A stretch of DNA of 64,000 nt from positions 1 through 64,000 of the forward strand of contig NW_027117342.1 in assembly GCF_038025025.1 (NCBI RefSeq), written 5' to 3'. This document shows positions 5,164-29,039 of this stretch, piece after piece. Source of the DNA: Phyllosticta citribraziliensis. Lineage: Eukaryota. Within the stretch, counting starts at the first letter, position 1; each line of letters begins with the position of its first letter. The translations under genes were made by a program, and so were the position numbers. Below the pieces are notes generated by a model. The model was given only the letters and a program-made list of their open reading frames with translations. It was not told the DNA's origin and did not search any database.

Positions 5164-5600
5164 CATACTCGCCGGCGAGTATGGCTTCCTCACTCACGTG
5201 ACCGGCATACTCGCCAGCGGGAATGGCCATACTCGCCGGCGAGTATGGGTTCCCCACTCACGTGACCGGCATACTCGCCGGCGAGTATGGGTTCCCCACT
5301 CACGTGACCGGCATACTCGCCGGCGAGTATGGGTTCCCCACTCACGTGACTGGCATACTCGCCGGCGAGTATGGCTTCCCCGCTCACGTGACCGGCATAC
5401 TCGCCGGCGAGTATGGCTTTCCCACTCACGTGACTGGCATACTCGCCGGCGAGTATGGCTTTGCCGCTCACGTGACTGGCATACTCGCCGGCGAGTATGG
5501 CTTCCCCGCTCACGTGACTGGCATACTCGCCGGCGAGTATGGCTTCCCCGCTCACGTGACCGGCATACTCGCCGGCGAGTATGGCTTTCTCGCTGGCGGG
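5164..5600. repeat. Palindromic tandem array 1: 42-bp unit = CATACTCGCCGGCGAGTATG (20-bp perfect palindrome) + ~10 variable nt + TCACGTGA + C(C/T)GG
   Basis: Perfect palindromes start at 5164, 5228, 5270, 5312, 5354, 5396, 5438, 5480, 5522, 5564; there are nine TCACGTGA octamers. Confidence 0.97.
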
Positions 5601-5825
5601 CTACTTCCTACATGTACCGCACCCACCACCGACCCGACTGCTACTGACCTGACCTGACCCATCCATGCCTTGCCTGGCAGCCAGCGACCACCATCCACCC
5701 ACCATCATCCACCATCATCCACCATCCACAATCCACAGCAGCCATCTGGATGTCATGGGTGGGCGGTCACTTCACTTTCAAGCCGCACGCCTTCGAGCGC
5801 CCACGCCTGTTGCTGCGCCTTGGTC

Positions 5826-6230
5826 ATGGACTTCGACGATGACTCGATACTCTTGAGAGCCCGGGCCCGCACGACGACTGCGAGCCTGCCCCCACGCCTT
5901 TCCTCCGCCCAAGCGCCGCAGCGCCGAGACACTCGCCTCCGCCCAAGCGCCGCAGCGCCGAGACACTCGCCTCCGTCCAAGCGCCGCAGCGCCGAGACGC
6001 TCGCCCTCGGCCAGATCAAACACCACCAGCCGACGCCAGAGCTGCTGCTCCAGAAGCTGCCGTTTGCGCGCCTGGTCAGTACCTACATACCTGACTGACT
6101 GACTGACTGACTGTGTGGATGATTGGCTGGCATCCGCGAAATCGCACACGACATGACGGCGCCCGGGCAGACGACGCGGTGGCGGACAAAGGCGCTCGAG
6201 GTGCTACAAAACTTGGCAGAATGGTATTGA
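5826..6230 (+). pseudogene. Truncated histone H3-family gene, CenH3/CENP-A-like
   Basis: Translation ETLALGQIKHHQPTPELLLQKLPFARL / IREIAHDMTAPGQTTRWRTKALEVLQNLAEWY* aligns to H3 alphaN-alpha1-loop1-alpha2. FARL (not FQRL), RW (not RF) and a loop 1 about 3 aa longer are CenH3-type traits. The intron from 6075 (GTCAGT, CTGAC repeats) has no AG acceptor before 6132; stop at 6228. Confidence 0.75.
5903..6004 (+). repeat. 34-bp unit x3 in the H3-like N-terminal tail
   Basis: CTCCGCCCAAGCGCCGCAGCGCCGAGACACTCGC at 5903, 5937 and 5971 (third copy has 2 substitutions). Confidence 0.95.
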
Positions 6231-7917
6231 GGCTGGACATGCGAATGTAGGGAATCGCGCAACATCATGGTGGACGAAGCTCCAATGGCCATCAATCAAT
6301 CTACCAGCTCGTTCTGCTGCCGCGTCGCTGAGTATTGTGGGCCGGCCCCGGCCATGTCGACGCCGCCTCGAGCGTTCTGGACGGCTGCCGTCGGACCATG
6401 GTTCGAAGTCTTGGGCGCCTGGCGCCGGGAGACGAGGAAAGAAGGCTCCTGACTGGCGCCTGAGAGCGAGTGAGGAGGAGCGACCAGGTTCATGCTCAAG
6501 TCCACAGGTAGACTGCCCAAGTGAAGGCTACTCGGTGTTGTGCTTCGTCCTCGAGGGCGGTGCACGGAACCAGTAGTCGAGGCTGGCGCCAGCGGCGTGG
6601 AGTCACGATGAATATGGTTATCTGTAGCAAGAGGTATTGCGCGTGTAGGTTCATCTATAGCCAAGACTGCTACTGCTTATGTTTAGATAGCATGAGCATG
6701 TGAGTGCTTTAGACATACTCGGACCGCCGTGGCTGCTGCCGGCGAGCCACATTTGCAGGTACATGTATTCTGGGATGATCGCGGGGTCGTACTGATCTGA
6801 TGAAAAGTCCATCCTGGCACTAACCACGCACGGCAAGGAGATTGAGTAACAATTCCATTCACTTCCTGGTCTGGAATCTTTAGCAACACGAGTGCTCTGC
6901 TCATCCACGACATTCTCGTACTTGACAAGCAAAAGCGCGCAGAGACATGGGTGGGTTTGCTTATACTAAGGACACGCCCGACCTACCTTGTCTGTCGCAA
7001 TCTTGCCCACCGCCTGTTTCCCGTTTTCCCGGCGGAGAGGGCCAGAATCCGCGAGGCATGCACGAAGAGGCAAGTTTGGCCCACAAATGAGGATGTAAAG
7101 CGGTGGACTGCATGTTGGTAACATCATCTCATCTCGGGCAGTCCTTCCTTGGCTTGGCCACACGCCCCGGAAACTTAGGCAAAAGGCCATGCGCACGTCA
7201 CGACGGAGACGAGGCGATGGATCAAGACCCACAGCTTCTCCAGAGCGTCGAACAAGGACGACTGCGAGTCTTTTCGCCCTTTTCAATTGGTCGTCAAAGC
7301 AACGTGTATGACAAGCCCACAGTCGGTGCGCTCCGCCGTCGCGTCAACCGCAAATTCAGAGAACAGCTGGGTGTTGTGGAACAGTTTGCCACCGTCTCTG
7401 AGGCGCAAAAGGACGACAAGCGCGCTTCTGCCTCGGGTTTCAATGCAGTAGCTCTACCGCGTCGCATGGTCTGGAGCATCAAGCCCATGATTGGCGCCAC
7501 ATGGAGTGACGACGGCAAGGAGGAGCAGCGCGAAGACAAAGAGAGCGAGGAACACGAGCTCAGTAGTTTTGATGCCACGGCCAACACCTCCGCCCAGGAC
7601 GCATTTCACCAGGCCCTCACCTAGTCGACCTATACCAAACCATGTCCTTGCGCAAGAAGCACACGGCTGCGTCCATGGCGACGTTTAAACAGCGCTCCGC
7701 GCAGCTGCGTGCCCATCACGTCCAGCGTTTCCTGACAAGTATGGTGTCTATCGCATGCTGCAAGGTGCGCGTTGGCGAGCGAAGTTCGGAAGACGGCCGT
7801 CGAGGGGTTGAGGGTCGAGGGTTGAGGGTCGAGGGTCAAGGGTCGAGGGCTCGGGCAGTACGCGCAGGTCGGGGGTAGGGGAGTTCTGGCTTCTTTTTGT
7901 CGGTCGCGGGGTGCTGC

Positions 7918-7976
7918 TGCTGGTGCTGGTGCTGGTGCTGGTGCTGGTGCTGGTGCTGGTGCTGGTGCTGGTGCTG
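7918..7976. repeat. (GCTGGT)n microsatellite; a (GAGGGTY)n heptamer run lies nearby at ~7800-7850
   Basis: Read directly from the sequence. Confidence 0.9.
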
Positions 7977-10900
7977 CTCCTGCTCCTGCTGTTGCTGTTG
8001 CTCCTACTGCCTCCTCCTCCTTAGACAACGGCAATGCCAACCGCGCTGCTTTTGCAGAGACGCCCGTCCCAAGCGCGTCAGTCCCGACCGTAGTCGCTGA
8101 CACGGGTGCTTCTGGTGCTGCTGGCGCTCTCCCGACGCCCGTTTCGCAGACCGAGCCCGCCACGGCCGCACCCAACACGAACGACGACGACAACAACAAC
8201 AACAACAATAATAATGGTGATGAAGGTCTTTCTGCTGCTCGTGCTGCTATTGCGGCCGCCGCCGCCCTCTACCCTCCTATCATTTTTTCTTCTCGCCAAG
8301 AAGACCACACAGAAGAAGGAGAAACGCTGCCTCGGCCTTTCGTCACCACCTCGGGAGACGCCTACGGCCGCGCCATACACGATCTTGAAGCCCTGACGGC
8401 CTGGTACTGCCGCACCGGCGGCCGCGGCGGCCTCGTGATCACGCGCCTCGTCGCCATGCAGCAGCGCACCGTCATCAGAGCCATACACGAGTACATGGAG
8501 TTTTTGGTGACGTTGTTGGCGAGATTGAGACACCTGCAGTGATGAGGCAGAGGCAGAGCAGAGGCAGAGGCATATGCGGAAGAGGTGGACGATTGTGGAG
8601 GGTGAGGATGAGGTAATTCAGCGTCGGTCGGGCAAGGGGGGGAGAGGGTTTCCTTTGTTTTGTCTTCTTTTCCTCCCTTTCCTCTTCGTTCCTCCTCTTT
8701 ATTACGGATGCTTAGTTTGGTATCATGGTTTCGTTGTAGTCGAATGGAAAAGATGCCATTTGAGAGCGTCAGTGTCCGCTTCTTCCCTCGGTACAACTAC
8801 ACTCTTAGCTCTGCTGCCCGCTCCACCACAAGCCAGAAACGCAACGGCGCGTTACCAATGCCGCATCCAGACTTGCATCGTGACACGGCAGGCAAAACTC
8901 TGTGGATGGGATGGTTGGCGAGGTCGGAGGTTATGCGCGGAGAGCGCGACGCGCGCCGTGCCTACGCCCTTCTCTTGTGTCAACAACGCTGCCTCTTGTA
9001 GCACCACACACTCAAAATTGTTTGTCGTTTATCATCGTCTGGTTGGGGCCTGACCTGACCCCCGCCGCTACCTCGTTGGGTGACTGACCTACTTCTGACG
9101 GTCGAGGGCTCTGGCTGTGGCGGCGGAAGCAATAGCGCTGCGGTGCGAAGCAAGACGACGAGACGGAGAACAGCGCAAGGTATCACGTGGAGAAGGGACG
9201 AGTAAACATGGCCAATGTTGTAGATATTCAGGAAACTCAAGGATCCATTCCACTCCACTCGCAGTGCCCGCGACAGGAAACCCCAGAAAACGTGCCGCCA
9301 TAGGCTGCCCGACGTGCGTGTGCCGGCTGATAGGAACAACGGGTCAAGTCCAGGTGTCCATCCTCCACTGGCAATACTTGCACCTAGACCGTGCCCGTAC
9401 AGTACACGTCGACGTAGCCGCCCGTGCCCCTTCCCGTGGCAACCATGGCAGCAGATACTTCATGCCCGTGCAATTGCATTTCCATCTCCATCAGCTCGGC
9501 GGCCAGGAGCACGTCGTCGGTGTCCGCGTCGGTTTGCGTGGTCCACTGCTCGCCGCCGCCACCGCCGCCGCCGCTCGTGTCCATGCTGCCTGTGTAGTCG
9601 GTGCTTTCACGGCGCCGCCGGCGGGGCTGCAGATGCACCATGGCACCGCATTCGGAGAGCTCGATGAAGCCTCGACTCTGACCGTGGCTCGTCGCTTGAG
9701 GGGGTGGCCGGCGTGGCTCCTGGTTGTTGCGGACCGCGCTTGCGCTGTTTAAAGATTGTGCTGGCTTGGGCGTCGGACCATTTGCTGGGGAGAGAGACGC
9801 CGAAGGTGACAAGAGACTCAGTGATTTGGCGCCATGTGAAGGCAGGCGGCCAGCGTCGTCAGAAGGCTGTGTATGCTGGTCCCGGCGTTGGTGGCTTGGT
9901 CTTAATGGCGACTGGTGACCCTTCATGATTGTTTCAAGGCTTGTGAGAAGGATAATCGATGACAGGAGGCGATTAAGGCATGGACATGGTGGGCTCTTGA
10001 GTGCTGTCGCTGTTGTGATTCACAGACGGTCGGGTTCCACTGCATGCATTTTCAGCAGAAACGTCTGTAATGTCTGTATGCAAGGGGAGACGCTGCATGA
10101 AGAGACGCAGCTGCAGCTGCACGAGAGACCAGGAACAGCATGCAAGGAGACTTTGCCGAGTTGTCAACATGCACACTCCCTGCTGTGTTCACGGAGGAAA
10201 AGGGGTCATCGCCGTGTTCCCACGTTGCGATTCGGACTGGGTCCACTTCTTATGGGCTGGCTGCTCACCGACTGTACGCGCGTTTCATCAGTCAGTGGGC
10301 CTCATTCAGCCAGTATGTACCTAGGAGAGGATGGATTGAGCTTTGCCGGCTGATGGTGCATTTGTTGGTCTGGGTCAAGTCAGTAGCAGCATGGCCCTTC
10401 TCATTGGCGTTGAAGACGCGACACGCAGCATCAAGAGCAGCATGGCCATGGTGGCCGTTGCATGAGCAGCATCATGTCGTGTTCCAGACGGAGGGTATGC
10501 AGGAATGCAGTCGGCACAGCGGAGGAGGACCCAGACAAGGGCAGATGAAGATGATGAGCCACCTCATGCCATGCATGATTCCGCGCTGCAAGATGTGTGC
10601 CGAATCCTGTACATGCATCCCTCGCTTCAAAGTATGCCTGATGATGACTGGAGACCGTGTGAAAATAGTTCTGCGAATCTCAATGTTGAATGTGGCATCG
10701 CCCGTTTGAAAACATTGCTCTCGTTTGGCAAATTGGAACAAATCAGCCCATCTTGAAAACGTCCTACCACTTTTGTGTCCTCTGAAAAGAGCCGTAGAGA
10801 TGATTGTGGTAGTGTTGCGCTGGCGATATGCGGTATTTAAAGGCGGCGGGGAATAATGGCGACGTGTTTGGCGCGTGGAATTCGGCGATAAAACTGCCTT

Positions 10901-12185
10901 GGAGCGTTAGCCAGTGTCAAGAGTGAGCCAGGGATGTGGGGAGTAAGCCAGCTCTGCTTACTGGTAGTCTGTGTCCGTATCTACGTTCCGTTGGCAATCT
11001 TGTCCTGATGCTCTTGGATCAAGCAAAACTTTCGGCATTCTGGCCCATGCGACTAGCAGGGACAATGTGCCTCTTCTGGGGTGGGTACACGGGCAGTCCT
11101 GAGGCCGTCCAGCCAGCCGGCAATCGACATGGCGAGGCCTCGAACGGCGTCACTCAACGCGACTGCTGCTTCAAGCGCCAATGACTGCAGTGACGTGTCG
11201 GTTGCTCGGGCGATGAACTCATCCGTACATTGTTCGAGGATGATGTCGTGTTGCTCCTCGTATGATACCGTAACCCAGTCGTGGCCGATTTCGGCGGCTT
11301 GGGTCGTCATTTTGGCGTCGTTGGACGGAGGGGTTGCGAAGGGTTGATCGACATAGGCGGCGCTGCTGGGAGCGAGATTGAGCGAGATTGAGCGAGAGGG
11401 GCAGAGGAGAAGATGGAGATGAGTAGAGTCGGAGGAATGAATTTGTTCGGTCGGGCGTGGTGTGGGTGTGGGTGACTGCCGTCGCGCCTGCCCTGCCAGA
11501 AGCAGAAGTGACGACCAAGGACGTCGTGACTGTCGGGTGAGACCTCAATCTCGGCTCCATGTATTGTTCATGGTGTTGTCAGAGCAGCGCGGTGTGGCGT
11601 TTATGGCGAGCTGTCAAGTACTTGTTGACATGGCCCTCGGCCGGTTTGGGCGAGTTGGGAGTTTTTTGTCCTCTACCACTTCGACTCGGTGAATCGCGAC
11701 GCCGCGTCCTCCTCATCCTCTGGCACCACTTCCACCCTCATAGAAAAGGCGGTACTGGGTCATTCTTCGGGCGGTAGTGCTGGGAGAGGTAGGATAAGGA
11801 AGCAGAGGGTGGATGCGGGCACGCGCGGTCATGATTTGCGGCGACAGTGCAAATCTCCATTGTCCTCGTTCAAGCCATGTCCACGCCGCGCTTTTTCTTC
11901 TCCTTGAATGCGTCAAAAGACGGTTCCGGCATGGACGGCGTCAAACTCGTCAGGGCCCCACGAGGTGGACGGTGATTTGATGGGGGAGGGCGGTTTGTAG
12001 TGTGGGGGTGGGCCTGAAGGTAGCGTGAGAGCAGCGGGTGCTCCTGTTGAGAGGGCGAGTACACGGGTCCAAGCAGTATGGAGAAGCCGTGATTAGGCCT
12101 TTTGGTTGGCCAGGCCCTGGCGGGCCATCTGTCGGATAGCCCTAAATGTCGCGGAGGTGTCCACGATCCTCAACCAGCTCACCCG

Positions 12186-13016
12186 TCACCAGGTCGATTT
12201 TGTCGATGCCACCGTCTTCTCGGGCGTACTTGGCCAAAGAAGACAGCGGTGAAGATCGGGTCGGCCCATGCTGGTGCTGCTGGGGGTGGTGTTGTCTCGA
12301 GACATGTTGTTGGATGGAAGGAGGACGCATGGAAGGCGTGTGGTGTTGGAAGAGCAAACGCCCCAGTAGCGCGTTGGTTTCGTGGGGAGAGGTGCGCGCG
12401 CAAGAATGTGGATGGCAAACATGATGACGAAGACGCTGCAGTCGTCTGTCCTAGTCTGATGCATACGTGCCAGCATCTCAACCTGCCACCCGTCCCAAGA
12501 TATGTCTATGCTGCTTACGATGGCGCGGGCCATGTCCGTGGCATTTTCGACGGTTGGGGGAGCTAGCGAATCGTAAAGTCTTGCGCGTGAAGCCAGAAGT
12601 CCACTCAGACTAGGAACCATTGTCTCCCGGAGCAACCAATGTCGAGCAAACGGCTGTCGGGCTGCATGAATTTGGCAATCCGTCGAGAGGTCGGTAGAGC
12701 TCAGCCAGGCTGACGGCGAAAGCTGAAGTCGAGTAGCAGCAGCAGCATTAGGTCAGGTGTTGTTGAAGCGCGTGGGCTACGGTCGGGCGAGGCGTGCAAA
12801 TCTACTATGGTGAGTGGTTAGCTTGAGAGCTACCGCTGGCGTCGACGGGCATCTACACATCCATCTACGAACCTAGCAGCGTCGTCGTCGTCGTCGGAGA
12901 TGATGGTCTCCACGAGAGACATGGCACCGAGGTCTTCCTCTTCTGGCGGCGGCTGATTGCGGGCATGCTCGACGCTGACGTCTGAGGCAGAATCGCTCAA
13001 GTAATCAGCGGTAGCC
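12186..13016 (-). pseudogene. Degenerate Ulp1/peptidase C48 (SUMO protease-like) gene
   Basis: Minus-strand frame reads LSPSAWLSSTDL..RHWLL..RLYDSL..GWQV..HQTRTDDCSVFVIMFA, giving H, D, Q, C in C48 order. The segment between the WL motif and HW looks deleted. An upstream exon has VETIISDDDDD, an intron (GTTCGT..GCTAAC..TAG) and in-frame stops. Boundaries are approximate. Confidence 0.65.
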
Positions 13017-13263
13017 TAGGGAATACGCAGTGCTTAGGTGGGCAACAAGGTACTGTGGAGAGCTCATTGTTTTCCCGAACTTTGGTAACAGTGTCAATAG
13101 AAGCTCTGTCATCGTCTGTTGTCTGGTGCGTATCTAAGCGTGTGCCAGTTATGTAGTAGGTGCATCAAGCGGAGAGAAATGCGCTTCTTGATTTATCTAG
13201 ATTTTGGTTTCAAAATTAATGCATTACGCTGAAGCCGTCTAATCCCAACCCCCTAATGTTTTC

Positions 13264-14040
13264 CTACCTATTCCTCGTCGTCCGTTTTACGTTCCTCCTA
13301 AGGTTCGGTTTGACATCTTCGTTGCTGTCTTCGGCGAGGGCTTTGGCAATGGCGTCGAGTAGGGTTTTGCCGAGTATAGCGGCGCTGGTGCCTTGATTGA
13401 CAGACGACTCCTCCTCTTCCTTCTTCTTCTCATTCTCTTCCTCCTGCTTTTGAGCGCTGCGCGGTGAGACGGCAGCATTTTTGCCGCTGTTGCCGGCGCT
13501 GCTCATGTACGCCGTGATTGAGTTTTTGCTGGACGTGGCCGTGGCCGTGGCCGCGGTCGCGCAGTGCGTGGCTCGCTGGTGTCGCTTCATGTTTTTGTCG
13601 CGCGTGTACTTTTTGCCGCACACGCACGCGAAAAGCTTCTCACGCCTGTGGACGGTGCGGCGGTGGCCCTCGACGTGGGTGCGACGCGCAGGGAAGTGGT
13701 GCTGTGGTAGGGCTCCTGGGCGTTGTTCTAGTTGTTGCATATCAGGGAGCGAAGCCATGTCGCTGCTTTCATGCCCCACCATCGGGCTGGGTGAATCGGC
13801 GCTGAATTTGAACTCGTCGTCGTCGCTGCTGTCATCCACCGCCACGGGGCTGGGCGAATCGGCGCTGGCTTTGAACTCATCGTCGTCGCTGCTGCTGGCG
13901 CTGGCGCTGGCGCTTTTTGATGGTGGACTGTAATCAGACATTGAGTCCGAGTCTGAGAGGACGATGCGGCGGCGCTTCATCGTCTGGCCTTGCCACGGAC
14001 GGCGCTGCATGAAGTTTTGGTGGTCAGGAGAAGATGACAT
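13264..14040 (-). CDS. C2H2-type zinc-finger protein (258 aa) with an acidic/Ser-rich N-terminus
   Basis: HRRTVHRREKLFACVCGKKYTRDKNMKRHQRATH (partial finger, linker, then a CxC..H..H finger). Internal duplication SSDDDEFKxSADSPSP occurs twice. Confidence 0.65.
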   Translation of the reverse strand: MSSSPDHQNFMQRRPWQGQTMKRRRIVLSDSDSMSDYSPPSKSASASASSSDDDEFKASADSPSPVAVDDSSDDDEFKFSADSPSPMVGHESSDMASLPDMQQLEQRPGALPQHHFPARRTHVEGHRRTVHRREKLFACVCGKKYTRDKNMKRHQRATHCATAATATATSSKNSITAYMSSAGNSGKNAAVSPRSAQKQEEENEKKKEEEESSVNQGTSAAILGKTLLDAIAKALAEDSNEDVKPNLRRNVKRTTRNR

Positions 14041-17000
14041 TGTAGAGAGGGGATGAGGACATGGAAAACTTACCAGGTTAGCTGCACAGTTCCGTGTCTA
14101 AATACTTGTAGCGGTCGAGCCACGGCAGAGCACACGTATGCCCGTCGCCATTTGACGGAGAAGCACATTTCATGCGATTAATCGCCTTGTTTCATGCTTC
14201 CTCTCCGCTGGTGGGCCGTCTATCCACTTCTATTCTTGCGCGCTCACAACTCTGCCGTTTCTTTTGGTGTTATACACAACGGGGAGCGGGGAGTAGCAGC
14301 CGGCTAATTTCGAAGCGGGTCGGTCCGTCGATCAAGAAGATGCATCGTAAAGTTGTCAAATTCAAGGGTAGTCAGGGATTGATGATGTCGACAGAATTGT
14401 GTCAACGCGAGTGTTTTTCGTGCGACAAATTGACTCTGAGGCTTGCTAGCGGTCGGGTGGCACAAGAAGGCCTTCCTCAAAGACCCTCTGAAAGGTGCAC
14501 AGTTGAGACCCATGGCAACGATGTTTTTGGGGACTTGGAGGGTCGTGCGCTGATGCATCATCGTAAAAAAAAGCAAGGGAAATCAGGAAAAGAAACTGTG
14601 GAAAATTAATGACCAAACAAAAACAACCATGAGCACCGGCCTCGGCTGTCGCGTTAACTGGAATTTATCCCGGGCTACCCATAATTCGCACTCGGCGCGT
14701 CAAATGGAAACCTACCTTTTTCTTGATGACGGCAGCAGTCCTCTCCGCCGTCTTGGCCCCCACTCACAGCAGCACCGGCCGTGCAACATGTCTCCATGCG
14801 ACGATGCTGTCCATCTCGCGCGCTTGGTAGGCTTGCCTCTGTCGTATTTTATCCCGTCTCTTCCTTATTCCTGAAGGCCCCGACCTCGGCGAAGGCGGCG
14901 ACCTGGCGCCAACGCCCGCGCTGCCGCGGCCAATAAGCGGACACTCGGCAAACGCAGCCGCAGTCGACGCGCAGAGCCTTCAACTGCAACAGAGAAGACG
15001 CGGAGGCCCGGAACACCAGACACTGGGCGGCGTAGCAGCATTTGTTGGAGGAACCGGGTCGCAGGGGGGCAGACGATTCGGAAGCAGCGCCGCGAAGTTG
15101 AAAGCCTACAACGCCGGCTGGTTGACAGGGATGACGACAAGATCCATTCTTGCGGCTATCGGCGCGCCAAATTTCAAGGGCAGAAAAATGAGCGGGTCGC
15201 AGCGCAAGCGGCTGGTACCGTAGGGTTGTTGTTGTTGTTGTTGCGACGGGGGACATGACTGCGGCGGCGAGGGCAGCTGCTGCTTGACGAACATGGCCGC
15301 GCGGCACAGCGACTCGAGGCTGACAGACGACACGGTGCTGCCCATGGTCATGCGGCCCTCAGTCGCTATCAGCTTGCGGATGAATTGGGAGAGAGAGAGA
15401 GGGGCGTACAACGTACCCTGCCAATGATGATAGGAATGAGCCGCTAGCGAGGTTTGACAAAGGTTCAAGGGAGAAGGGCGTGGATAAGGGCGGTCATGAT
15501 GGAGAGGCTTCGGCCGAAGGCGAGGGCAAGACTCGAGGTGGTGGATGGAGAAATGAAAGCGAGAGAGACGAAGTTGGACTGGACCGGGACGGGACCCGGA
15601 CCTGACCTGAGTGGTTGACGCTGACGTCATTTCCGCTTGCTTCCCTCCAGGTCAACACCACCGCAGGCACCGTCCCGCCATCACATCACAACCACCCACG
15701 GCACCAATACTCCAGGGAATTTCAAGGACTCGCGCTTCTGGTTCTTTCGGCTTTCTCAGTGGTGAGCTCACTGCAACAACACTGCCCAGCCCTCTTCTTC
15801 TGCCCCGTACCACCACTCCGCTAACTTGCATGTACCACCAGAGTGACGAATCGCCTCTCTCTGTACTGGGCCGACATGTCCGGCTCCGCTCCCTCGCTCC
15901 CGTACATCTCACGGCACTTTGGCGGCATTGCCCCAGACATGCCCAGTTCATACGGCCTCGACATCTCCCATCCCGGCCCAGCAACTCCTGCCAGCCGCCG
16001 CCGCCGCCACCGCCATCGCAGAAATAACGGGTAGCTGGGTACAAAAGTGGGTGCGGCGCACTGAGGAGGCTCTAGAAGATGGCAACAAACATGACTTGAT
16101 GCGCGCAGAGGATGAGAAGCAACCAAACCGAGAGGGAGAGGGGGACGGGTCAAGACGAGCGCCTTCTCGCGCCCGCACTGCCGTCATGATGGAACATCAC
16201 CGTGGCATTGGTCCAGCTACGCGTCGCCAGAGTCAACTGCCGCACCGCCTGCCTTCCATCTCCCTGCCAGACTCGCCCCAGACCGAACACCCACCTTATG
16301 AGCTGTGAGGGTACAGGGATAACCATAACCACCCCGGCCCGCGCGCGTCGCGTACGCGTTTTCTGGTGCTGGAGATGCAGCCGCTGCCCCGTGTTTGCCT
16401 GGCTGGCGCGGAGAATTTCACCTCCAAACTCCTGTCCCCGCTGGCCCGCGCCTTGGTGGACGCGACCGATAGTATTTCATCTCTTGCGACGCCCACGCTC
16501 AAGCTCGACCTCGACCCTCGTCTGACCTCTTCTGGCAGAGCATGATGGCCTCCACCCGGTATGCATACGCCATGTGATGCCAAATGCGGTTCACTGGGCG
16601 GCCGGTACGTCTGGCGACACGTTTGCTCAGCACCCTCGCACCAGAGCTCCGCGACGAGATCGAGCTGATGCACTCTCACTGCCGCTTGGCCGCCCTAGGT
16701 ACGCAGACATGACCAAGCCAAACAACGGGAAATGCTAACCTTCACCACTCGTGTAGCCCGGCCTGCTCCTACAGCGCTGCCAGCTCGACCACCGTCGCCA
16801 CTGTTCCTCCTTCTACTCTGCCAGCCCGACTGCGGGCACCCTTTCGCCGGCACCGGAGGTTAACAGCTCGACGGCTCACACGGACTTGCCAGTCGCAGCC
16901 CTGGGCACCCCTACTCCACTACTTGACGACCAGGCAGGACCATAGCCGTCTTAGTCGCCTTGTGCCCACGACCGACGCGTCCCCAAGGGCGGCAACCCCG

Positions 17001-17471
17001 CGCCCAACCAGAGCCGATGTAATGGACGCGCTGCTGCGACTTTGCGCCGTGGCGACGAGTCCTTCACTGCCGTCCGACAGTGCTCCCCGACGCTTACGGT
17101 GAGAGGCAGGTCGGGCTTGCGCCGCCGCTGCCGGGCACCGCCTTTTTGGTTGGCGAACGCCGCTGCGCAATAGCAAGGTCACCCATATTGTAGCAAGTTA
17201 GAGGTCGCATGGCTAAGCGGATCTGCAATATGCTGATTGACTTCCCCCACCAGCAATTCCCCGTGCTCATGAGCTGCGTTGACTTTGACGAGGCCCGGCC
17301 GCCGCTCTACAGCTTGGAGGCCTACCGCAGCCGGACGCCTGTTTTCCCTGTCGCAACGCAGGCTCGACCGGCCGCCATTTTGTGGGCTACCGCGAGACGC
17401 GAGCAAGGAGGACAGAGACGCCGGCTGTTTCGGTGCAGATAAAGATCAAGACGACGGCCGCCCAGACAGCA

Positions 17472-17726
17472 AAGAAGCCGGCAAATAAGAACGCCGTCTA
17501 CCAAGGCTATGAGCTCAAAGACGGTGACGACCAGATGTGGCATGCGAAGTGGTGTCTGGGCTCGTGGAACAAGTCTGGCTCCAATACCCTCCTGCTCTTC
17601 GAAGAAGCCGGCGAAGAAGAACGCCGTCTACTGCGACTACGAGTTTGAAGACGGTGACGGCCAGATGTGGCATGCGAAAAGTGGTGTCTGGACTCGTGGA
17701 ACAAGACTGGCTCCAAGACCCTCCTG
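17472..17726 (+). repeat. Diverged ~130-bp tandem duplication inside a decayed coding region
   Basis: KKPANKNAVYQGYELKDGDDQMWHAK versus KKPAKKNAVYCDYEFEDGDGQMWHAK; copies start near 17472 and 17602. Confidence 0.9.
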
Positions 17727-18679: not shown

Positions 18680-19796
18680 CTAGTGACCGCGGAGATTACT
18701 CAGCAGCATCCCAGCTGCAGCAAGCGACGCAAAAATGATGTAGCGCGCTCCGGCCAGGCCATGTTGCTGGCGAAGAGCGCGGTGGAGGGAGTGGAAAGCG
18801 CGGAATTGGGCTTCGCTCAAGGTCGTTGGCGAGAGTTCGGCGTAGTCGCCTGGCACGAGGACGCTGCCAGCCATGGCCGGCGGTTCAGCGTGAGCGAGAG
18901 GACGAGGTTTATGAATGTACATACTCGCCACGCCGCCGGAAGTCCGGCCCTACCTCACTGCTACTCGTCTTGCTTGCGTCCTAGCCGCAGGTTATTGAAG
19001 AGAGACGCCGGCCTCTCGCCGGCAGGACTGGATTGAATACCACAACTCTCAACTTTTGGTGACAGTGCACGTCATTCGGCGCCTGAACAGCTGGAATTTT
19101 CGACCGCTCCTCCCGGCTCTACCAAGACAGACAAGACGCGCTGCTCCAACGACACCGCTGCCCCCACCGCGTTCGTCGCGCGAGCGAGCCCTCTCCAAAC
19201 TGTTGCAATTGCTAGATCCATGGCCCTGCCAGAACGCGATTCACAACGTGTGGCGACGCCTTTTCACAGACGGGGCTGATGAAGAACAGGGTCGTGTGGG
19301 AAAAGGATCGAGTCTCCACCGACTTTGAAAGGCCGAGTCGGGAGACGGACCCATGGCACGCGCCAGTTGTAACCTGTATTGCGCCGGAGCGATTGCGCTC
19401 TGTCGCCCGCCGAGAGCCCATTTTGTGATTCCATCTTCCATCATCCCTCAGCCTGTTAGGCGAACGAGGTGCGGCTGACGATGCGGCGAGAGGATGAGGC
19501 GGGGCCTGAGTAGAGGGTGGGGTGATGGGGGAAAAGGCGGGTCGCGAGGGCGAGTTGGCAGCCGAGGAGCTGGGTCCGCTGGAGAAGTTGAAGGTGGTGG
19601 ACATGGGAGTAAGGCCACGATGTCCGCAGGATTGCTGACTTGAGGTGCTCGAGGGCAATCACTGTGCCAGCTCGCGGGCCAGGCGCTGCGTCTGGCGCGT
19701 CCTCAGCTGCTGCAGCATATCGGCATGTGAGGTGGCTTCCAAGGCGGCGGCGGCGGCGGCGGCGGCGGCTGAAATGTTGGATTCGGGTGGTTCCAT
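18680..19796 (-). pseudogene. Decayed gene divergent from array 2 (Ala/Ser/Pro-rich N-terminus; unknown family)
   Basis: MEPPESNISAAAA... is broken by TGA at 19659-19661 and continues in the same frame (track 19212..19658); further frameshifted pieces lie downstream. Confidence 0.35.
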
Positions 19797-20527
19797 TGTG
19801 AGTTTCGGGTCGGCGATGAGGTCGTTGGGCGATGAGGTCGTTGCTGGGCGTCCAATCTCAGGAGGAGCGAAGCGGTGGGAAGAGAGGGGGATGCCGCGAG
19901 TCGAGATGACGACGGGAGGGGACGTGACGGCGGAGACAGGGAGACCGACTGGAGTCCGTCGATGCCGATGTAGGGGAGACGCGTGAGGTGGTAGGCGCGA
20001 CGCGACGCGTCGGGTGCGTGTGTAGAGTAAGCAAGGCGGTGGCAGAATCAATATCCCTCCCTTCCCTCCACCACGCGACCAGCACCACTGCACCTGGAAA
20101 CCCTGCACGGCATGCATCATCGCACCTTGATAGCTTCCCGTCTGCTCTGTGGCAATAATGCTGACTCCCAGCGTTGGCAATCGACGCGCAAATCATCCTT
20201 TTCAGCCCTTCTACCGGCCGTGCTCCTCTCGTTCGCTGCACTGTTGTAGCTCCGCCGGCAAGGCACCACCACACGGTCCGCCGATCGGGTGGAAGGTGTT
20301 TTTGTCGCATCAGCGGTTGCTGCACACTGCATGCCCCGCATAGCGATGAAGACATACGAGGTCATCTCTTGCTGACGTGTCGTCAATCCTCAGCGACGCC
20401 GCCGGTCGAAGGCTGAAGATGCTCACCGGCGGGAAGCAACCAACCTTACCCTCTCTCGGTTGGCGTCGGAAGCTGTGCGTAAAGTGCCGCTGCGCGCGCC
20501 GAATACAATACCCGCTTACATAACGTC

Positions 20528-20982
20528 CATACTCGCCAGCGGGAATCACACTCGCCAGCGAGTATGGCTTTCTCGCTCACGTGACCGGCATACTCGCCAG
20601 CAGGAATCATACTCGCCGGCGGGTATGGCTTTCGCTCACGTGACCGGCATACTCGCCAGCGGGAATGGCCATACTCGCCGGCGGGTATGGCTTTCGCTCA
20701 CGTGACCGGCATACTCGCCAGCGGGAATGGCCATACTCGCCGGTGGGTATGGCTTTCTCGCTCATGTGACCGGCATACTCGCCAGCGGGAATGGCCATAC
20801 TCGCCGGCGGGTATGGCTTTCGCTCACGTGACCGGCATACTCGCCAGCGGGAATGGCCATACTCGCCGGCGGGTATGGCTTTCTCGCTCATGTGACCGGC
20901 ATACTCGCCAGCGGGAATGGCCATACCCGCCAGCGGCAATGTCCTTTCTCGCTGGCGGAAATCGTACTCGCCAGCGGTAATG
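20528..20982. repeat. Palindromic tandem array 2: ~62-64-bp unit TCAYGTGACCGG-CATACTCGCCAGCGGGAATGGC-CATACTCGCCGGCGGGTATGGCTTT(CT)CGC, six units
   Basis: TCAYGTGA at ~20577, 20636, 20698, 20762, 20824, 20888. Same architecture as the first long unit of array 1 (5194-5257); both arrays end in TTTCTCGCTGGCGG. Confidence 0.96.
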
Positions 20983-21279
20983 GTACTGTAGTTACTAACA
21001 GAGGCCGCTGACTCTCCCTCTCCTCCTCCTTCTCCTCGCACAGGACTACAAAACCTTCTGGACACTTTGCGTCGTCTCGTGTCGCGTCCGCCTCTCTTCT
21101 CTCTCTGCTGTCCCCCCCAACCATCCATTCCACAGCGACATCCACACTGACCCGACTGCCTGCTGCGCACGCCTCGACTCCATCCCACTGCCAACATCAT
21201 GGTCCAAACCCCCGTACTTCCTGACCTGCGAAACCCGCGTCCTTGCTGACCCGCGTACCCTGCGTCCTTCCCGACCAGC

Positions 21280-21430
21280 GTTCGCCGCATGAACGTCGGT
21301 CTCACGTGTGCAAAGAGCTCGCTGTGGGTGCTGGGCAACTCGCAGAGTCTACCCAGGGACGAGTTCTGGCGCAAGCTCGTTGAGGACGCGCAGAAGAGGG
21401 ATCGGTACACGCAAAGCGACTTGATGGGCA
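21280..21430 (+). pseudogene. Fragment of a Sen1/Upf1-like SF1 helicase C-terminus (motif VI region)
   Basis: VRRMNVGLTCAKSSLWVLGNSQSLPRDEFWRKLVEDAQKRDRY matches the RRxNVxxTRA(K/R)..L.vlGn..L....W..L pattern; the motif Arg is replaced by Cys. No other helicase motifs are nearby. Confidence 0.8.
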
Positions 21431-21463
21431 TGTCGAGGCAGCACTCAACCGCTTTCCCGGCTC

Positions 21464-21601
21464 AATTCACTCATCCTCCCCGAGCACACTCCTGCCCGTA
21501 CGTAGACCCTTGCACGCGTCGCATTGCCGACCGCGAGCTGACATTGTACAGTCGACATTCTTGTCGAGCGACGACGCCTCGCCCAAACAAACCTGCAGGT
21601 C
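21464..21601 (+). pseudogene. Fragment of the Bqt4-like APSES gene N-terminus with its intron (21498-21551); paralogous to 25786-25930
   Basis: Spliced reading NSLILPEHTPA|LDILVERRRLAQTNLQV, nearly identical to NPLILPEHTPA|LDILVERRRLGQTNLQV at 25786-25927, with the same GTACGT donor position. Confidence 0.8.
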
Positions 21602-23681
21602 AGCATGTCTTCACTGGCTTGGAGGACAACGAGGAGCAGTTGACGATTTGCATGTACTGGACACAACCATTCTTAGCGACGGCTTCCAAGGCCGCATCAA
21701 CAACCTCAACGACGATGCATCTACGCAGCGCCAACTTCTCAACGGCCAATACCAGGATCTGAAGAGAGCATACCCAGGCAACGGGGACTTCAACAAGCAC
21801 GTCGAAAAGACAACGCTCGAAGTCATCGGGCTGTCGCGCCAGCACGCCGCCAACATTGCACGCTTGAAGCAGCGCTTGACCGTCGCCTGGAACGTGAGCT
21901 TGAAGGACCTTGAAGACGCTTTTGGGCAAACCACATCCAAGGACTTCTTCCACGCCGTCATCAAACTCAGCGCTCTCCACAACTTTGATGAGAGCTTGAC
22001 ACGTCTGCGCGAGAAGCGCACCTCATGGCAGGCCTCCAAGACGGCCGGTGGTGCCAGTCGCAAGCGTGTATGTGTTCCGCAAGACGCGCAAAACGCCTTG
22101 AAAAAGGCCAAGGCCGAAACCGAACCTGAAGCGCATCCGTCGCCCTCAATCAAAGGCGGGCGCGGCCAAAGTGCGGATCGTGAGGTTCCCGACGACTTCG
22201 GCGGCGACAACGACTTCAGCGACGACGACGACTACTTCGAAGACAACTACGGCGGCAGCGGAACCGATGATAATCTAGACGGCAACCTCGCCGAGTCATT
22301 GCTCGATGACCAAAACGAGCCAGATGTCCCCGTTCCGCCTCCCAAACGTCGCCGACGCGACTCGTCTGCCTCGTTTGTGCCCGGCGACTCCAGCGCCTTG
22401 TTGACACCAAAGATGGCACGGTACGAAGCAAATGTCGGGACAAAGATGGGTCTTTATCCGTCCAAAACAACGCAGCAGACGTTTCAATCAAAAACTGTCC
22501 TCTAAAGCTCGCCTCGTCGCGGAAACTCAGCCCCTCCGTCACCGACCCCCACACGGAACAAGGCCAAGGGCAAAGCTGCTGTACTTGAGACGTCAGAAGA
22601 TGGAGCAATGCCGATCAACGCCAAGGCTTGCGAGCAGTTGGTCAACGGCCAGATGCTCCACAGCTCCGTGGTTGACAGAGTCGTCGAACTGGCCGTCTCT
22701 ACGAGACCCGAGTGGCGGGCGATCAACTCGTCCTCCTTCACGAATCCAATTCCTCTCCGACACGTCATGCGCGCGAATGAGAAGGAAAATACACTCCTCG
22801 GGCCACTCCACCAGCATGGGCATTGGACGCTTGTCAGGTGCATCCGCGACGCTGATGACCAGGTTCGCAAGGAACACTGGGACTCGATTGCTGGTGGCAG
22901 GTCGAATGCGACCGTCGACAGCCTGCTTGACGTGTTCCTGGACAAACAGCCAAATTGGACGCAGAGCGAACAAGGCAGAAGATGACTGTCGGAGAGACTT
23001 TGTCCGTCCCAGCTCAACAGCGTCGACTGCGGCATCTTCGTGGCCGTTGTCTGTCTCTTTCTCTGTGCAGACCAATCCCTCCCATCGACACTCAACACGC
23101 GCCTGTGGCAGCGAGTGCTATTCTGTCTGCTCAAAGACGATGGCGACGTCGACGGCGATGAGCTCCAAGAAGAAGAGTCGGAGCCCGGTCGGCTGTCTAC
23201 GCTGTCGCCCACGGAAGTTTTGGCACTGGTACGCGATGTCGGCGAAAGGACCGTGGCCGCACAACTTCGCAAGGAGAAGCTCGACCGCGTCGCGCATGCC
23301 ATCCTCTACGTCGAAGATCTGCACGAGGTCAAGGATCTGGCTTAGGCGTTGGACGCGCGCGCATCTTGGGCGCTGGCAGCATGGCAAGGCCGACGTGACG
23401 ATTCGACCCAGGACGCGGCGCGCCAGGACGAGGCGCTGAAGAAGTTGGAGGCCTGCACTGGCAGGGATTCACAACTCGAGCACCAACTCCGCGCTCGCGT
23501 CAAGAGCACGCGTGAAGAGGCAAGCCTGGCAGGCCGACAGGTCGGCGCGGTCGGGGAGCTGCGACGGGGACTCGCGAGGGCGCGTGCGCTGGCCGTCCGC
23601 AGGCTCGACTCGGCTGGACGGCAGGTTGAGGAGCGGCAGCGGGAGCTTGCAGAAACGGAAAAGGTCATGCGTGTAGACTGA
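21510..23681 (+). pseudogene. Ulp1/peptidase C48 (SUMO protease-like) gene: helical N-domain, acidic linker, NLS, C-terminal coiled coil; three in-frame stops
   Basis: Track ORFs 21510..22505, 22608..22985, 23040..23345 and 23349..23681 share one frame, separated only by TAA 22503, TGA 22983 and TAG 23343. Motifs: LVNGQMLHSSVV..INSSSF..LGPLHQHGHWTLV..HWDSI..SQLNSVDCGIFV; PPPKRRRR NLS. Confidence 0.85.
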
Positions 23682-24726
23682 TGGCGCAGGATGAGGCAGT
23701 GTGGTGGTTGTAGTGCTGCTGGTGGTGGTGGGTATTAAGATGACGGACATGACATTCCGCTCGTGTTGAACCGGTTTTGAGTGCTGGAAGATGGGTAGAG
23801 GGTGAGAACGCTACACCGCGGGAGCATTCGGGCGACTCCCTCTTATTGCGCAGTGGAACAAGTCTCGGTGAGCGAGTGCTTCAAGGAATCAATCTTCTAC
23901 GACGACATTGTGGCTGACTTGGCGCGCAAAAGACCAAGAAAGTACGTCGCCCACCATCTACAGGCCGACAAGCAGTTAAAGCCGCACAACCTCAACGCCG
24001 CCACGAAGCCTACCCTCTATCCTAATCTAACAAGCTAGCCCATCCTTTATCATCTCAACGATCATGTCATGCGCAATCCGCAAAGTCCCATCTCTGACGC
24101 CGACCGCCCTCTAACCATCTTTTTTCAACCTTGTGCTCCCGCGAGTATTACTAGAATGGCAGATTCAAGGCTCTCTGTTGGCATCCTGCTAAAAAGAAGA
24201 TGGTAGATGATAGTGATCAGGTTAGGGCGTGGGTGGTCATTCTCCTAAACCAGCACAAGCTCGGAAAATTTCCACGCAAATGGAGCCAAGATGTAAAAGT
24301 CTTTGGTGCCGGAGCGCGTACTAGGCGCCACGGGGGCGCCTTGATTGTGCACTGTACATCTAAAGCAGATGCTGCACCAACTTGAGTCTGGAGGCCGGCT
24401 CATGGTGTGGACCAAGAAGATGGGGCCCGAGTTGTTAGAGCGCCGGACAGGACGGGATGAAGTGGCGAAGCGAATGAGGCCACCGCGGGGGGGGGTTGGG
24501 GCAACATGTAGCGAGGACTGACGTCGCAATGGATTCAGGAGTGCATACAGACGAGGCTGCGCTCGTTGCAACGGTTTGATTCGTTCGTTCTCGCCGCTGA
24601 GCGCCGCGGTCACCTCAACCACACGAGGACCTCGCGCCGCCGCTCAGGTCTTCCAGCTCGCCTTGCTCTGCTCAAAACCCCGGTCCTCGCCCTCAGGTCC
24701 TCCCGCCCTGCGTCACAGACGACGCA

Positions 24727-25254
24727 ATGCACCTTGACTCTCTACGTACAGCGACCGCCGCTGTCCTCAAGTCATCTACTGAAGCTGTCCAATGTCTCGA
24801 CAAATTTCTCAACAATCGCGACAAGCTCCACGCGGCTCGAACCAAGCTCGAGTTCATGCAGCAAGACAGCCGCCCGCTTGGAGAATTCGCCACTGAGTTT
24901 GTCAGCTTGACTCAGAGGGCCGGGTGGGACCCAGTCTCGGCCAAGAAGGCCCTGGTCAGCAAGTTGAAATTTGAGGACGCAGCGCTGATGATAGAGCTCA
25001 AGGAGCAAGGCCTACCCTACGCGGCGATGGCAGAGTAGGTCGGGTGTACAGATAAGATGGTCACTAGGCGCATCAAATACATCAAGGAGCGGCCTGCGGA
25101 GCGACAGTCGTACCAAACATGGACTCCTAAGGACTATGCCAACGAGAGGCTCGGCTTCAAGACGATTACGGAGTGCTTGGTAGGGAGGGCCATGGCGCAG
25201 GCTGTGATGCAGTACAAACACTTGTTGAGGATGCTACATGCAGTGTTGACGTGA
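24727..25254 (+). pseudogene. Isolated Ty3/Gypsy-type Gag capsid-like fragment
   Basis: FLNNRDKLHAARTKLEFMQQDSRPLGEFATEFVSLTQRAGWDPVSAKKALVSKL fits the retrotransposon gag pattern (A..L..L.Q....EF..L....GW). In-frame TAG at 25036; no pol or LTR is visible. Confidence 0.6.
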
Positions 25255-25360
25255 CCCCAAGCAAGTAAGGTAGCCAAGTAAAGCCGGCGGCGGCAAGAAA
25301 CCCTCTCCCGGTGGGCGTCGGAAGTTATGCGCAAAATGCCGCTGCGCGCGCCAAAGAGAA

Positions 25361-25543
25361 TACCCGCTGGCGGGAATCATAGTCGCCAGCGGGAAAGCCA
25401 AACTCGCCGGCGGGAAAGCCAAACTCGCTGGCGGAAATCATACTCGCCAGCGGGAATGGCCATTCTCGCCGGCGGGAAAGCCAAACTCGCTGGCGGGAAT
25501 CATACTCGCCAGCGGTAATGGCCAAACTCGCCAGCGGGAATGG
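25361..25543. repeat. Palindromic tandem array 3: about nine 20-22-bp units (A/T)ACTCGC(C/T)(A/G)GCGGGAA(T/A), lacking CACGTG
   Basis: Same core as arrays 1 and 2; preceded by a ~70-bp block (25300-25368) homologous to 20448-20516; TATA-like TATAAA at ~25635 downstream. Confidence 0.92.
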
Positions 25544-25717
25544 AGCCTGCGCCGGCGGCAAGGGCGGTCGCTAGGGCAGTGCCTGGGCAATAGGCGAGCG
25601 CGGCAGAATCACGGGCCGGGCAGAACCCACACAGTATAAAGAGGCCCCCGCCGCCCGCCGGCGGCCTTTTCTCCTCCATTCCACTCCACTCCACTCCACT
25701 TCACCCTCCCAAATCCG

Positions 25718-26236
25718 ATGTGGCCTCGGCACCCAATGTGCACGCCGACTTCTCTCGTCCGCGCCCTCCTGTCCCCAACCAGCGGAACCCGCTCATCCTC
25801 CCAGAGCACACTCCCGCCCGTACGTTGGTCTCCTGCACGCGTCGCGCGTCGCACCCTGAGCTAACTCTCCACTCATAGTCGACATTCTCGTCGAGCGACG
25901 ACGCCTCGGCCAAACAAACCTTCAAGTCAAGTCGGGCCAGGTCGCCGGCCCTTCCAAGCAGCCAGAAGTGACGGATCTGTTCGACTACGCCCATCTGCGC
26001 GTGCCGTTGCCCAAGGACCTCAACGGTTCCGGCATCTTCAGCCTTTCGTCGTACATTTTGATGGTAAGCTCGCAAATCCACCACCGTCGCGCCTTGGTGC
26101 TAATCCTCTCAACAGCGCCGCAGCAGCGATGGCTTCATCAGCGCTACCGGAATGTTCAACGTCGGGGGCCCCGCCTTTCCTTGGGCCTCGCAGGACGACG
26201 AGGAGCAGGAGCGCATTTACCACAAACACCCTGATG
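25718..26236 (+). pseudogene. 5' part of a Bqt4-like APSES/KilA-N domain gene (truncated, probable frameshift near 25768)
   Basis: With introns 25820-25878 and 26064-26115 it reads RNPLILPEHTPALDILVERRRLGQTNLQVKSGQV..LFDYAHLRVPLPKDLNGSGIF..SYILMRRSSDGFISATGMF..AFPWASQDDEEQERIYHK, which I recognise as the Pezizomycotina Bqt4-like APSES N-terminus. Similarity stops mid-domain. Confidence 0.8.
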
Positions 26237-28872: not shown

Positions 28873-28892
28873 CCAACCAACCGACCAACCAA

Positions 28893-28932
<40 letters not shown>

Positions 28933-29006
28933 TCAGTCAGTCAGTCAGTCAGTCAGTCAGTCAGCCAGCCAGCCAGCCAGCCAGCAAGCCAGCAAGCCAG
29001 CAAGCC

Positions 29007-29039
<33 letters not shown>

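Follow-up and report, generated by a model that had tools for sequence, protein, structure and literature searches.

Extra histone and kinetochore genes are already known from accessory regions of fungal genomes, and how such regions are switched on, marked and built is an open question. In the available parts of the respective reports, chrA and chrB, accessory chromosomes of Metarhizium robertsii, carry additional chromatin and histone genes (PMC10945790), and supernumerary chromosomes of Fusarium carry Scm3, Mif2/CENP-C, Mis13 and chromo genes (bioRxiv 10.1101/721753). Here we analyse the first 64,000 nucleotides of contig NW_027117342.1 of Phyllosticta citribraziliensis (the window; C5:1-64000 in a genome of 31.35 Mb and 22 contigs), in which three tandem arrays of a near-palindromic motif lie beside pieces of chromosome-biology genes, together with the chromosome-end compartments that hold the other arrays of this family. 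Like the accessory chromosomes, as described in those parts of the reports, the compartments are poor in genes and flanked by repeats, contain additional histone, Scm3 and chromodomain genes and have few core genes that can be recognised; unlike them, they are the ends of ordinary-sized chromosomes and are present in a related organism. A region-specific array of putative promoters, as proposed here for the Phyllosticta compartments, is not mentioned for the Metarhizium or Fusarium accessory chromosomes in the same parts of the reports.

Other described systems resemble the arrays in part. The homologous regions (hrs) of baculoviruses are dispersed clusters of tandem imperfect palindromes with a proposed enhancer role and with rearrangements nearby; the arrays share that organization but stand on a cellular chromosome, with no viral genes and 0 matches to viral contigs (IMG/VR), and an enhancer or origin role would here be putative. 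Regulatory minisatellites and homotypic clusters of transcription-factor sites occur at bidirectional promoters. The arrays are like them in having a tandem fixed motif, with E-box and AP-1-type sites, at putative divergent promoters, and differ in being one 17-copy family limited to an accessory-like compartment and linked to fragment capture. With the budding-yeast point centromere and the 2-micron STB the arrays share by sequence a tandem CDEI-like RTCACRTG, with CenH3 and Scm3 paralogues in the same regions, whereas an AT-rich CDEII (~80 bp, >90% AT) is missing and there are many arrays per arm. Pack-MULEs and Helitrons join short intron-bearing host fragments into transcribed chimeras, as is also the case here, but no termini, target duplications or transposase were found, and the array is central, with fragments to both sides of it. 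Helitron gene capture in Fusarium is, as far as the available part of its report goes, the nearest fungal precedent for the fragments (PMC13342296).

What is new in our results is the genome-wide confinement of the arrays, the divergent-promoter signature of their flanks, the clustering of captured fragments near them, and the reduction of three apparent modules to two independent, decayed ones. It seems on balance probable that the arrays are compartment-specific bidirectional promoter/enhancer clusters which attract and express captured DNA. A single motif family in an accessory-like region, at divergent-promoter positions beside captured pieces, provides a concrete handle (the 42-bp unit); if the proposal is true, the accessory compartment would have its own regulatory code and would be a nursery for chimeric genes without a transposase.

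Confinement of a palindromic array family to chromosome ends

A search of the window with a 20-mer (at most 3 mismatches, both strands) rendered 57 matches, for 0.02 expected by chance, all of them in 5164-5583, 20528-20982 and 25378-25542. The three arrays that had been predicted from the letters of the window were thus recovered in place and, as judged by their asymmetric spacers, in one common orientation:

5164..5600, + strand: array 1, made up of 12 palindromic cores, for the most part in a 42-bp unit of a 20-bp palindrome and a spacer containing TCACGTGA
20528..20982, + strand: array 2, 16 cores in a higher-order unit of 62-64 bp (22 + 40/42)
25361..25543, + strand: array 3, 9 cores at 19-22 bp, without E-box spacer; apparent duplicate of the array-2 unit

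The module of the family, of ~21 bp, comprises the near-palindromic core CTCGCYRGCGRG with CACGTG and TGACTCA spacers. We take the TCAYGTGA / TCACGTGA spacer to be an E-box and TGACTCA to be an AP-1/Gcn4-type site. Core-to-core distances are of 19-23 or 40-44 bp in 147 of 156 cases; in the longer spacers, TCAYGTGA stands 16 bp ahead of the next core (42 of 42) and TGACTCA 12 bp behind a core (17 of 18). The 42 E-box-like spacers are distributed over 9 of the 17 arrays that were delimited. Helical phasing, which could be read from the core spacing, was not counted as independent evidence, since regular spacing follows from unit copying. A reading of the arrays as CRISPR-like was ruled out, as there are no unique spacers.

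It could be argued that the family is a neutral, fragile minisatellite, a GC-rich palindrome which spreads by ectopic repair in subtelomeres into open promoter DNA, binds nothing specific and drives no transcription, with fragments gathering beside it only because it breaks. Arrays and flanks have ~60% GC, and the fold-back potential of array 1 is far better than that of its shuffles (z -21.5); moreover, pairs or trios of arrays, and no larger groups, share 18-69 bp of flank, as copying predicts, and all three downstream genes in the window are broken. The positions of the core, however, hardly vary among 171 cores from arrays that differ in their higher-order units, the arrays have no depletion of the kind left by repeat-induced point mutation (RIP) while neighbouring repeats do, and the related organism (organism B) has an array-2-like contig. 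We therefore regard a neutral minisatellite as unlikely.

In the DNA examined, 17 arrays were delimited (10 on C5, one more on C13 and six on C4), those of the duplicated C5/C13 end described below being counted once. Genome-wide, three exact patterns gave 48/48, 70/70 and 60/60 matches inside the compartment ends, in the ranges C4:2.245-2.409 Mb, C5:5-145 kb and C13:1.208-1.353 Mb; in a further motif search the 100 matches listed, of 122, were all in the C4, C5 and C13 compartments, and similarity searches of the genome using DNA with arrays gave no match outside them. The core motif was found at none of the native CenH3, Scm3, Bqt4, Sen1, H3 and three Ulp loci. The expectation that arrays would recur elsewhere and non-randomly was borne out, but only for accessory-like chromosome ends, and the native CenH3, Bqt4 and Sen1 loci carry none. 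An Rfam scan of window 2300-32500 rendered 0 matches, and a literature search (main texts outside most subscription papers) found no account of the motif or of such arrays, its one match to the motif being a paper on sequencing contaminants. Two matches of a two-core pattern in metagenomes are two-unit duplications in bacterial coding DNA and were put down to chance.

The array-bearing compartments are the ends of contigs of 1.36, 2.47 and 2.50 Mb, and telomere repeats occur at those of C4 and C13. The stretch C5:1-148770 corresponds, in reverse complement, to C13:1209415-1358182, the C13 copy ending in telomere repeats, and a comparison of seven sampled stretches (68 kb in total) showed 0 mismatches and 5 gap openings. 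A recent arm duplication or a mis-join may explain this, and both fit the sequence. Because the IML1 gene is truncated at the C5 junction (C5:148770) and one extra array stands past the junction on C13, the latter is the likelier source of the 149-kb end. About 2 kb of non-telomeric DNA stand behind the telomere repeat of C13. Pfam scans of 708 open frames (at least 97 aa in the window, at least 120-150 aa in other stretches) found in the array-bearing regions nearly only Scm3, Myb, Ulp1/C48, chromo and Brr6 domains; past C5:148 kb, and likewise ahead of C13:1203 kb, ordinary genes take over again. The compartments thus have the few core genes, many orphans and repeats of accessory chromosomes; they are not a separate small chromosome, as an accessory (B) chromosome would be. 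In the window there is a GC-rich island of 30 kb (2.4-32.2 kb) between AT-rich blocks with RIP-type dinucleotide loss.

Homologous DNA of organism B was found in 30 of 30 bins of window 4400-24390, at ~90% identity, and relatives of the resident compartment genes, at 48-51%, occur in P. citricarpa, P. citriasiana and P. capitalensis, because of which the compartment is old and probably vertically inherited. One protein of this genome is identical to a protein that a database lists under P. citribraziliensis.

Outward C skew and spliced contigs at the arrays

The 5' leaders of native genes are C-rich on the sense strand, as seen at H3 and H2A. C skew was determined in 400-bp flanks read away from the arrays and compared with random points of the compartments (5000 draws). 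Over 17 arrays the mean outward skew was 0.163 vs 0.001 ± 0.025 at random points (0.153 and 0.172 for the two sides vs 0.00 ± 0.04), and both flanks were positive in 12 of 17 arrays vs 3.5 expected; none of the 5000 draws reached the skew or the count, in a test in which the 17 arrays are not fully independent since some of their flanks are related. Outward C skew on both flanks is, at the level of sequence, the signature of divergent promoters. An inversion of skew could also mark replication origins or origin-enhancers dispersed along the compartment like baculovirus hrs, and the spacing of six successive C5 arrays (10-16 kb) and their imperfect palindromes in tandem would agree with this; the skew is explained, however, by C-rich 5' leaders such as those of the native H3 and H2A genes, the spacing on C4 is irregular and there is no IMG/VR match, so that an origin function appears extremely unlikely.

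Contigs of two sequencing runs from two studies, X1 and X3, contain canonical-intron joints, none of which is present in runs X2 or X7. X1 and X3 seem to behave as RNA because they skip canonical introns that are kept in X2 and X7. Array 1 has contigs of these runs to its left and right, and arrays 1 and 2 are both flanked by spliced contigs; contig depth figures were not used to rank genes. The surroundings of array 1 are the following:

2861..4591, - strand: intact 576-aa gene reading away from array 1; Ascomycota family without a name; paralogue near the C4 end
5148..5155, - strand: putative TATA box TATATATA, directly left of array 1, read from the sequence
5826..6230, + strand: pseudogene derived from CenH3; its intron, 6075-6131, has the CenH3 position and has lost its acceptor, and a stop falls inside the histone fold

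The 576-aa gene is, in the part that was compared with them, deeply covered by contigs of both spliced runs, and in an atlas search its protein matched only Ascomycota clusters without a name. At the TATA position of its C4 paralogue (C4:2482496-2484535) lies the beginning of a RIP-degraded element. Array 1 is bracketed by loose ends that resemble adaptors, at 5108 (run X3) and 5708 (run X1), in contigs, which cannot show starts.

Divergent genes had been predicted to the left of arrays 1 and 2. At array 1 this holds, with the intact 576-aa gene, but at array 2 what can be recognised is a NOT1 fragment of 202 bp, at a distance of 865 bp. An ATG was indeed found at about the expected 180-230 bp behind each array (226, 217 and 175 bp for arrays 1, 2 and 3, respectively).

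Captured host fragments and decayed copies beside the arrays

The stretch around arrays 2 and 3 contains pieces of several genes whose other copies lie elsewhere:

17395..17600, strand not given: fragment of a C8 gene, 206 bp, 83%; the donor has an H3-like N-terminus (by eye, no family over the cut-off)
19458..19659, - strand: NOT1 fragment, 202 bp, 90%; 5' coding end of NOT1, sense to the leftward reading from array 2
20448..20527, + strand: shared left flank of array 2, with a copy at 25300-25360 by array 3 (87% over 69 bp)
21063..21602, + strand: Bqt4 5' piece, with 5' untranslated region, exon 1, intron 1 and start of exon 2, interrupted at 21239-21469
21281..21463, + strand: Sen1 fragment, 183 bp, inserted into the Bqt4 exon 1 copy, with short matching sequence at the junctions
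21603..23681, + strand: Ulp1-like pseudogene with three in-frame stops, one of a ten-copy compartment family; nearest copy C5:100941-102932
24243..24320, strand not given: fragment of an unlabelled C12 gene, 78 bp
24756..24975, + strand: retrotransposon gag fragment of 220 bp, with 91% identity to an element on C9; 380 bp to the left of array 3
25772..26247, + strand: second Bqt4 piece, 83%, with two introns kept and no in-frame start

The gene labels of the original prediction (CenH3-like, Bqt4, Sen1 and Ulp1-like) agree with the identities to native genes, the PF02902 score and the CenH3 intron position. The Bqt4 pieces have 83-85% identity to the native gene, at C5:235 kb, exon 3 of which matches solved Bqt4 chains (E 2e-6); no PDB entry was matched by the Bqt4 piece of the window, by exon 2 of native Bqt4, by the HORMA exon or by the Rec114-like frame. 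The Sen1 fragment has 92.9% identity over 183 bp to a SEN1_N-bearing gene on C7, and the Ulp1-like open reading frame of the window is above the PF02902 cut-off; it is closest to C5:100941-102932, and no such match to native Ulp genes was seen on inspection by eye. In organism B the Ulp1-like copy lacks the first stop.

The Bqt4-derived intron 21498-21551 is spliced in one run (X1) and joined into Ulp1-like sequence. A joint of 1777 depth at 21238-21552 was discarded as cross-mapping of the native Bqt4 transcript. After splicing, no two of the Sen1, Bqt4 and Ulp1-like parts share a frame: the Bqt4 start, as the ATG behind array 2, opens 16 codons, the Sen1 frame has ~140 codons, and the Ulp1-like frame contains three stops and lacks a start in its first part. 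Because the spliced parts are out of frame, the region behind array 2 is a chimeric transcript and not a fusion protein, contrary to the fused Sen1-Bqt4-Ulp1 gene that had been envisaged, and the ATG behind array 3 is likewise out of frame with Bqt4, so that these ATGs could not be confirmed as starts of genes built from the fragments. On the other hand, the decay noticed in the window copies is real, the CenH3-like and Ulp1-like copies being pseudogenes and the second Bqt4 piece lacking an in-frame start.

Array 3 has its left flank and an overlapping Bqt4 piece in common with array 2. Since the left flank is shared, one Bqt4 capture followed by duplication would be the simplest history of both modules, which no longer make a three-fold recurrence with that of array 1. 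In a three-way Bqt4 comparison the two copies have 7 sites in common and 13 private ones each, which taken alone would agree with one capture or with two. As introns are retained in both Bqt4 copies, they point to capture at the DNA level.

A search for fragments was carried out in 42.7 kb of the ~280 kb of compartment DNA, in stretches chosen by us, leaving out two matches <50 bp, simple repeats and a 150-bp dispersed element present on C6. It rendered 16 fragments, 58-498 bp long and matching loci outside the compartments at 78-96% identity, which with Sen1 make 17 donors, all of them examined. Five relate to chromosomes or meiosis (Bqt4, Top2, a HORMA gene, a Rec114-like gene below the cut-off and an H3-tail-like gene identified by eye) and five to RNA or transcription (Sen1, Not1, a CCCH-finger gene, an Lsm12-like AD gene and a gene that we presume to be Stm1-like), while the other seven are a PX-BAR sorting nexin, an S10 carboxypeptidase, a gene upstream of a Tcp11 domain, three unlabelled genes and one gag. 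A strict chromosome-biology bias of the captured genes is not sustained by 5 of 17 donors; a nuclear lean is possible, in a count made without a proteome background.

Of the fragments, 11/16 lie within 1.5 kb of an array (p 0.004), as do 9 of 13 clusters (p 0.008), for 33% of the searched DNA that near. The cluster test gave p 0.017 without Bqt4, and p 0.008-0.027 across four thresholds with or without it. No outside donor was found in the array-free 9.6 kb at 6300-15900.

Intron-bearing pieces of host DNA, beside tandem short motifs, are also what the subterminal repeats of a gene-capturing transposon (of Pack-MULE, CACTA, Helitron or Starship type) would leave, its autonomous copy having been lost or destroyed by RIP, and Ulp1-type proteases are known passengers of Mutator-like elements. 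This origin is nevertheless very unlikely, given that the 34 flanks of the 17 arrays (300 bp each) have no common terminus, terminal inverted repeat or target duplication, and that five Pfam scans of the 708 open frames detected no transposase, recombinase or helicase family. They likewise found no Mutator transposase in the compartments, where RIP-degraded blocks are unreadable, the MULE family not having been searched genome-wide. Genome-wide, DUF3435 and Helitron_like_N had 0 matches, with both controls likewise silent, and so had DEPDC5_CTD, with its control likewise silent, so that these zeros do not speak for absence. The idea of a promoter array with gene capture therefore stands in so far as the skew, the spliced contigs at arrays 1 and 2 and the enrichment of fragments are concerned, but not as a mobile or driving element, for which neither a transposase nor a recombinase was found in the scans; the related organism, too, has the region, at ~90% identity.

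We propose to see in the arrays the cis-regulatory signature of an old compartment, accessory-like and located at chromosome ends. Each array would be a homotypic cluster of the near-palindromic site, putatively protein-bound, on a ~21-bp grid and often with an E-box and an AP-1-type site, which would keep chromatin open and fire transcription outward on both sides. Arrays would spread within the compartment via segmental duplication and gene-conversion-like copying, whereas the open palindromic arrays and their flanks would break or stall and be patched by DNA-level template switches, copying 60-500-bp pieces of unlinked genes beside them; the captured pieces would then be transcribed as leaders or chimeric RNAs. 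The window would hold the decayed output of this process: a pseudogene of the CenH3 family, a 5' piece of Bqt4 that was captured a single time, duplicated along with the array and later hit by the Sen1 insert, and the Ulp1-like pseudogene.

The Ulp1-like family provides a further comparison. With gene starts estimated by us and an array required within 1.5 kb upstream, 4 of 10 Ulp1-like genes have one, vs 0.97 expected (p 0.009). A number of points speak against the proposal as a whole. The association with Ulp1-like genes weakens to p 0.04 when the distance is set to 2.5 kb and is lost with 0.5 kb (p 0.28). The clustering test was made on chosen stretches with four thresholds and few events, and any promoter may attract insertions, the comparison being one without an array-free promoter control. 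From the contigs neither strand nor start nor level can be read, and that X1 and X3 are RNA is a guess from their splice joints only. Moreover, 5/17 arrays have no outward skew on one side, array A4 (C5:75972) is at the 3' end of an H3-like gene, a strict TATA match occurs in only 2 of 34 flanks, and the constant spacing between E-box and core can be explained by common descent alone.

Other captured pieces have features of their own. The donor on C8 (C8:2059 kb, minus strand) has, by eye, an H3-like tail at its start and a chromodomain-like stretch at its end, and its pieces are repeated in the compartment, at window 17395-17713 and C5:109832-109972. A 261-bp piece of a HORMA-domain (Hop1-like) gene, at C5:98405-98665, is antisense to the outward reading and 569 bp from an array. 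C5:99601-100098 consists of two adjacent pieces of one C4 locus (961916-962395), the second half being inverted.

Resident chromosome-gene families of the compartments

The CenH3-derived pseudogene behind array 1 has 49% identity to native CenH3 vs 38% to H3 and a longer loop 1, and its intron has the position of that of native CenH3, not of canonical H3. Contigs run through this intron unspliced in two runs and, with the acceptor lost and an early stop, the window copy has no complete histone fold. It looks like a decayed member of a resident sub-family rather than a fresh capture, because its donor sequence is shared with the copies at C5:129 kb and on C6. Besides the native genes there are four H3-like copies in the compartments and one on C6, and those examined at the site share the CenH3 intron position. 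Linked pairs of CenH3-like and Scm3-Myb genes are located at C4:2326896-2328318 and C5:127818-129545; further single copies are at C5:76195, C6:1517340 and C11:1325813. Of the ten Ulp1-like copies, seven are intact with catalytic residues. A family search rendered 150 Ulp1-like representatives (696 at E up to 1e-10), one Pseudocercospora match places the family outside Phyllosticta as well, and in the atlas search the matches of a Ulp1-like copy were under 0.9. The compartments also hold one chromodomain gene and two Brr6-like nuclear-envelope genes (C4:2299 kb and C5:147261-147854), 29% identical to each other.

An array lies within 1.5 kb upstream of one of four CenH3-like genes (the pseudogene), of 0/3 Scm3-like genes and of none of the three Brr6/chromo genes, and the array nearest to the intact CenH3-Scm3 pairs is at 4 kb for one pair and at >60 kb for that on C4. 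Because of these counts and distances, the arrays do not single out segregation genes; the co-expression of segregation modifiers suggested at first finds no footing here, and the intact pairs elsewhere in the compartments have no adjacent array.

The co-occurrence in the same compartments of two CenH3-like plus Scm3-Myb pairs, more H3-like genes, two Brr6-like genes, a chromodomain gene and ten Ulp1-like genes could nonetheless mean that the compartments are fused remnants of a B-type mini-chromosome, the arrays being the cis sites at which Scm3-Myb proteins bind and load variant CenH3, with an E-box acting like CDEI, for a kinetochore or a drive of its own. On its other strand the E-box spacer reads GTCACGTG, which we take to be the CDEI consensus, RTCACRTG, and the E-box-like spacers fit it. 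Nine arrays over 135 kb have one polarity. Histone and kinetochore genes occur on accessory chromosomes of other fungi too, in the available parts of the reports (PMC10945790, 10.1101/721753). Native Scm3, however, carries a Myb domain as well, so that this domain is not special to the paralogues, the C4 pair is far from any array, the arrays are GC-rich and without an AT-rich CDEII-like tract, and the regions are ends of 1.4-2.5-Mb chromosomes common to the related organism; such a segregation system is quite improbable.

It is similarly doubtful that the arrays are docking sites of a second, self-encoded chromatin system, in which two-Myb Scm3 paralogues or a C2H2 protein would bind the core, activate compartment genes and load variant CenH3, with the sites transcribing captured pieces as tuning RNAs. 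If this were true, segregation, protection or drive of a former mini-chromosome could proceed independently, and the captured Bqt4, HORMA, Rec114-like, Top2, Sen1 and Not1 pieces, some of them antisense, could tune host genes as RNAs. Two other features of the window belong to these families or are of a type named here:

12145..13037, - strand: broken Ulp1-like copy with Scm3 domain fragment, 78-80% DNA identity to an intact gene at C4:2414 kb; no array nearby
13264..14097, - strand: spliced gene with a C2H2-like finger, Pfam below the cut-off; a candidate DNA binder

Next to the chromosome end, window 37-2412 consists of RIP-degraded tandem repeats of 160 bp and 957 bp. At 28885-29050 there is a graded tetranucleotide microsatellite whose unit changes stepwise, and an inverted relative of it is the intron of the H3-like pseudogene. 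Directly beside the compartment on C13 (C13:1171-1202 kb) lies a nonribosomal peptide synthetase cluster with cytochrome P450s, an O-methyltransferase, an M19 dipeptidase, an oxidoreductase and transporters, presumably, by its gene content, of the epipolythiodioxopiperazine type. Finally, a dispersed element of ~150 bp (C4:2395868-2396028, C4:2313342-2313486, C4:2284545, C5:86697-86776 and C6:1513181-1513292) adjoins two arrays and elsewhere stands alone; at C5:86.7 kb it adjoins a scrap of reverse transcriptase, which from its motif we take to be of Copia type.

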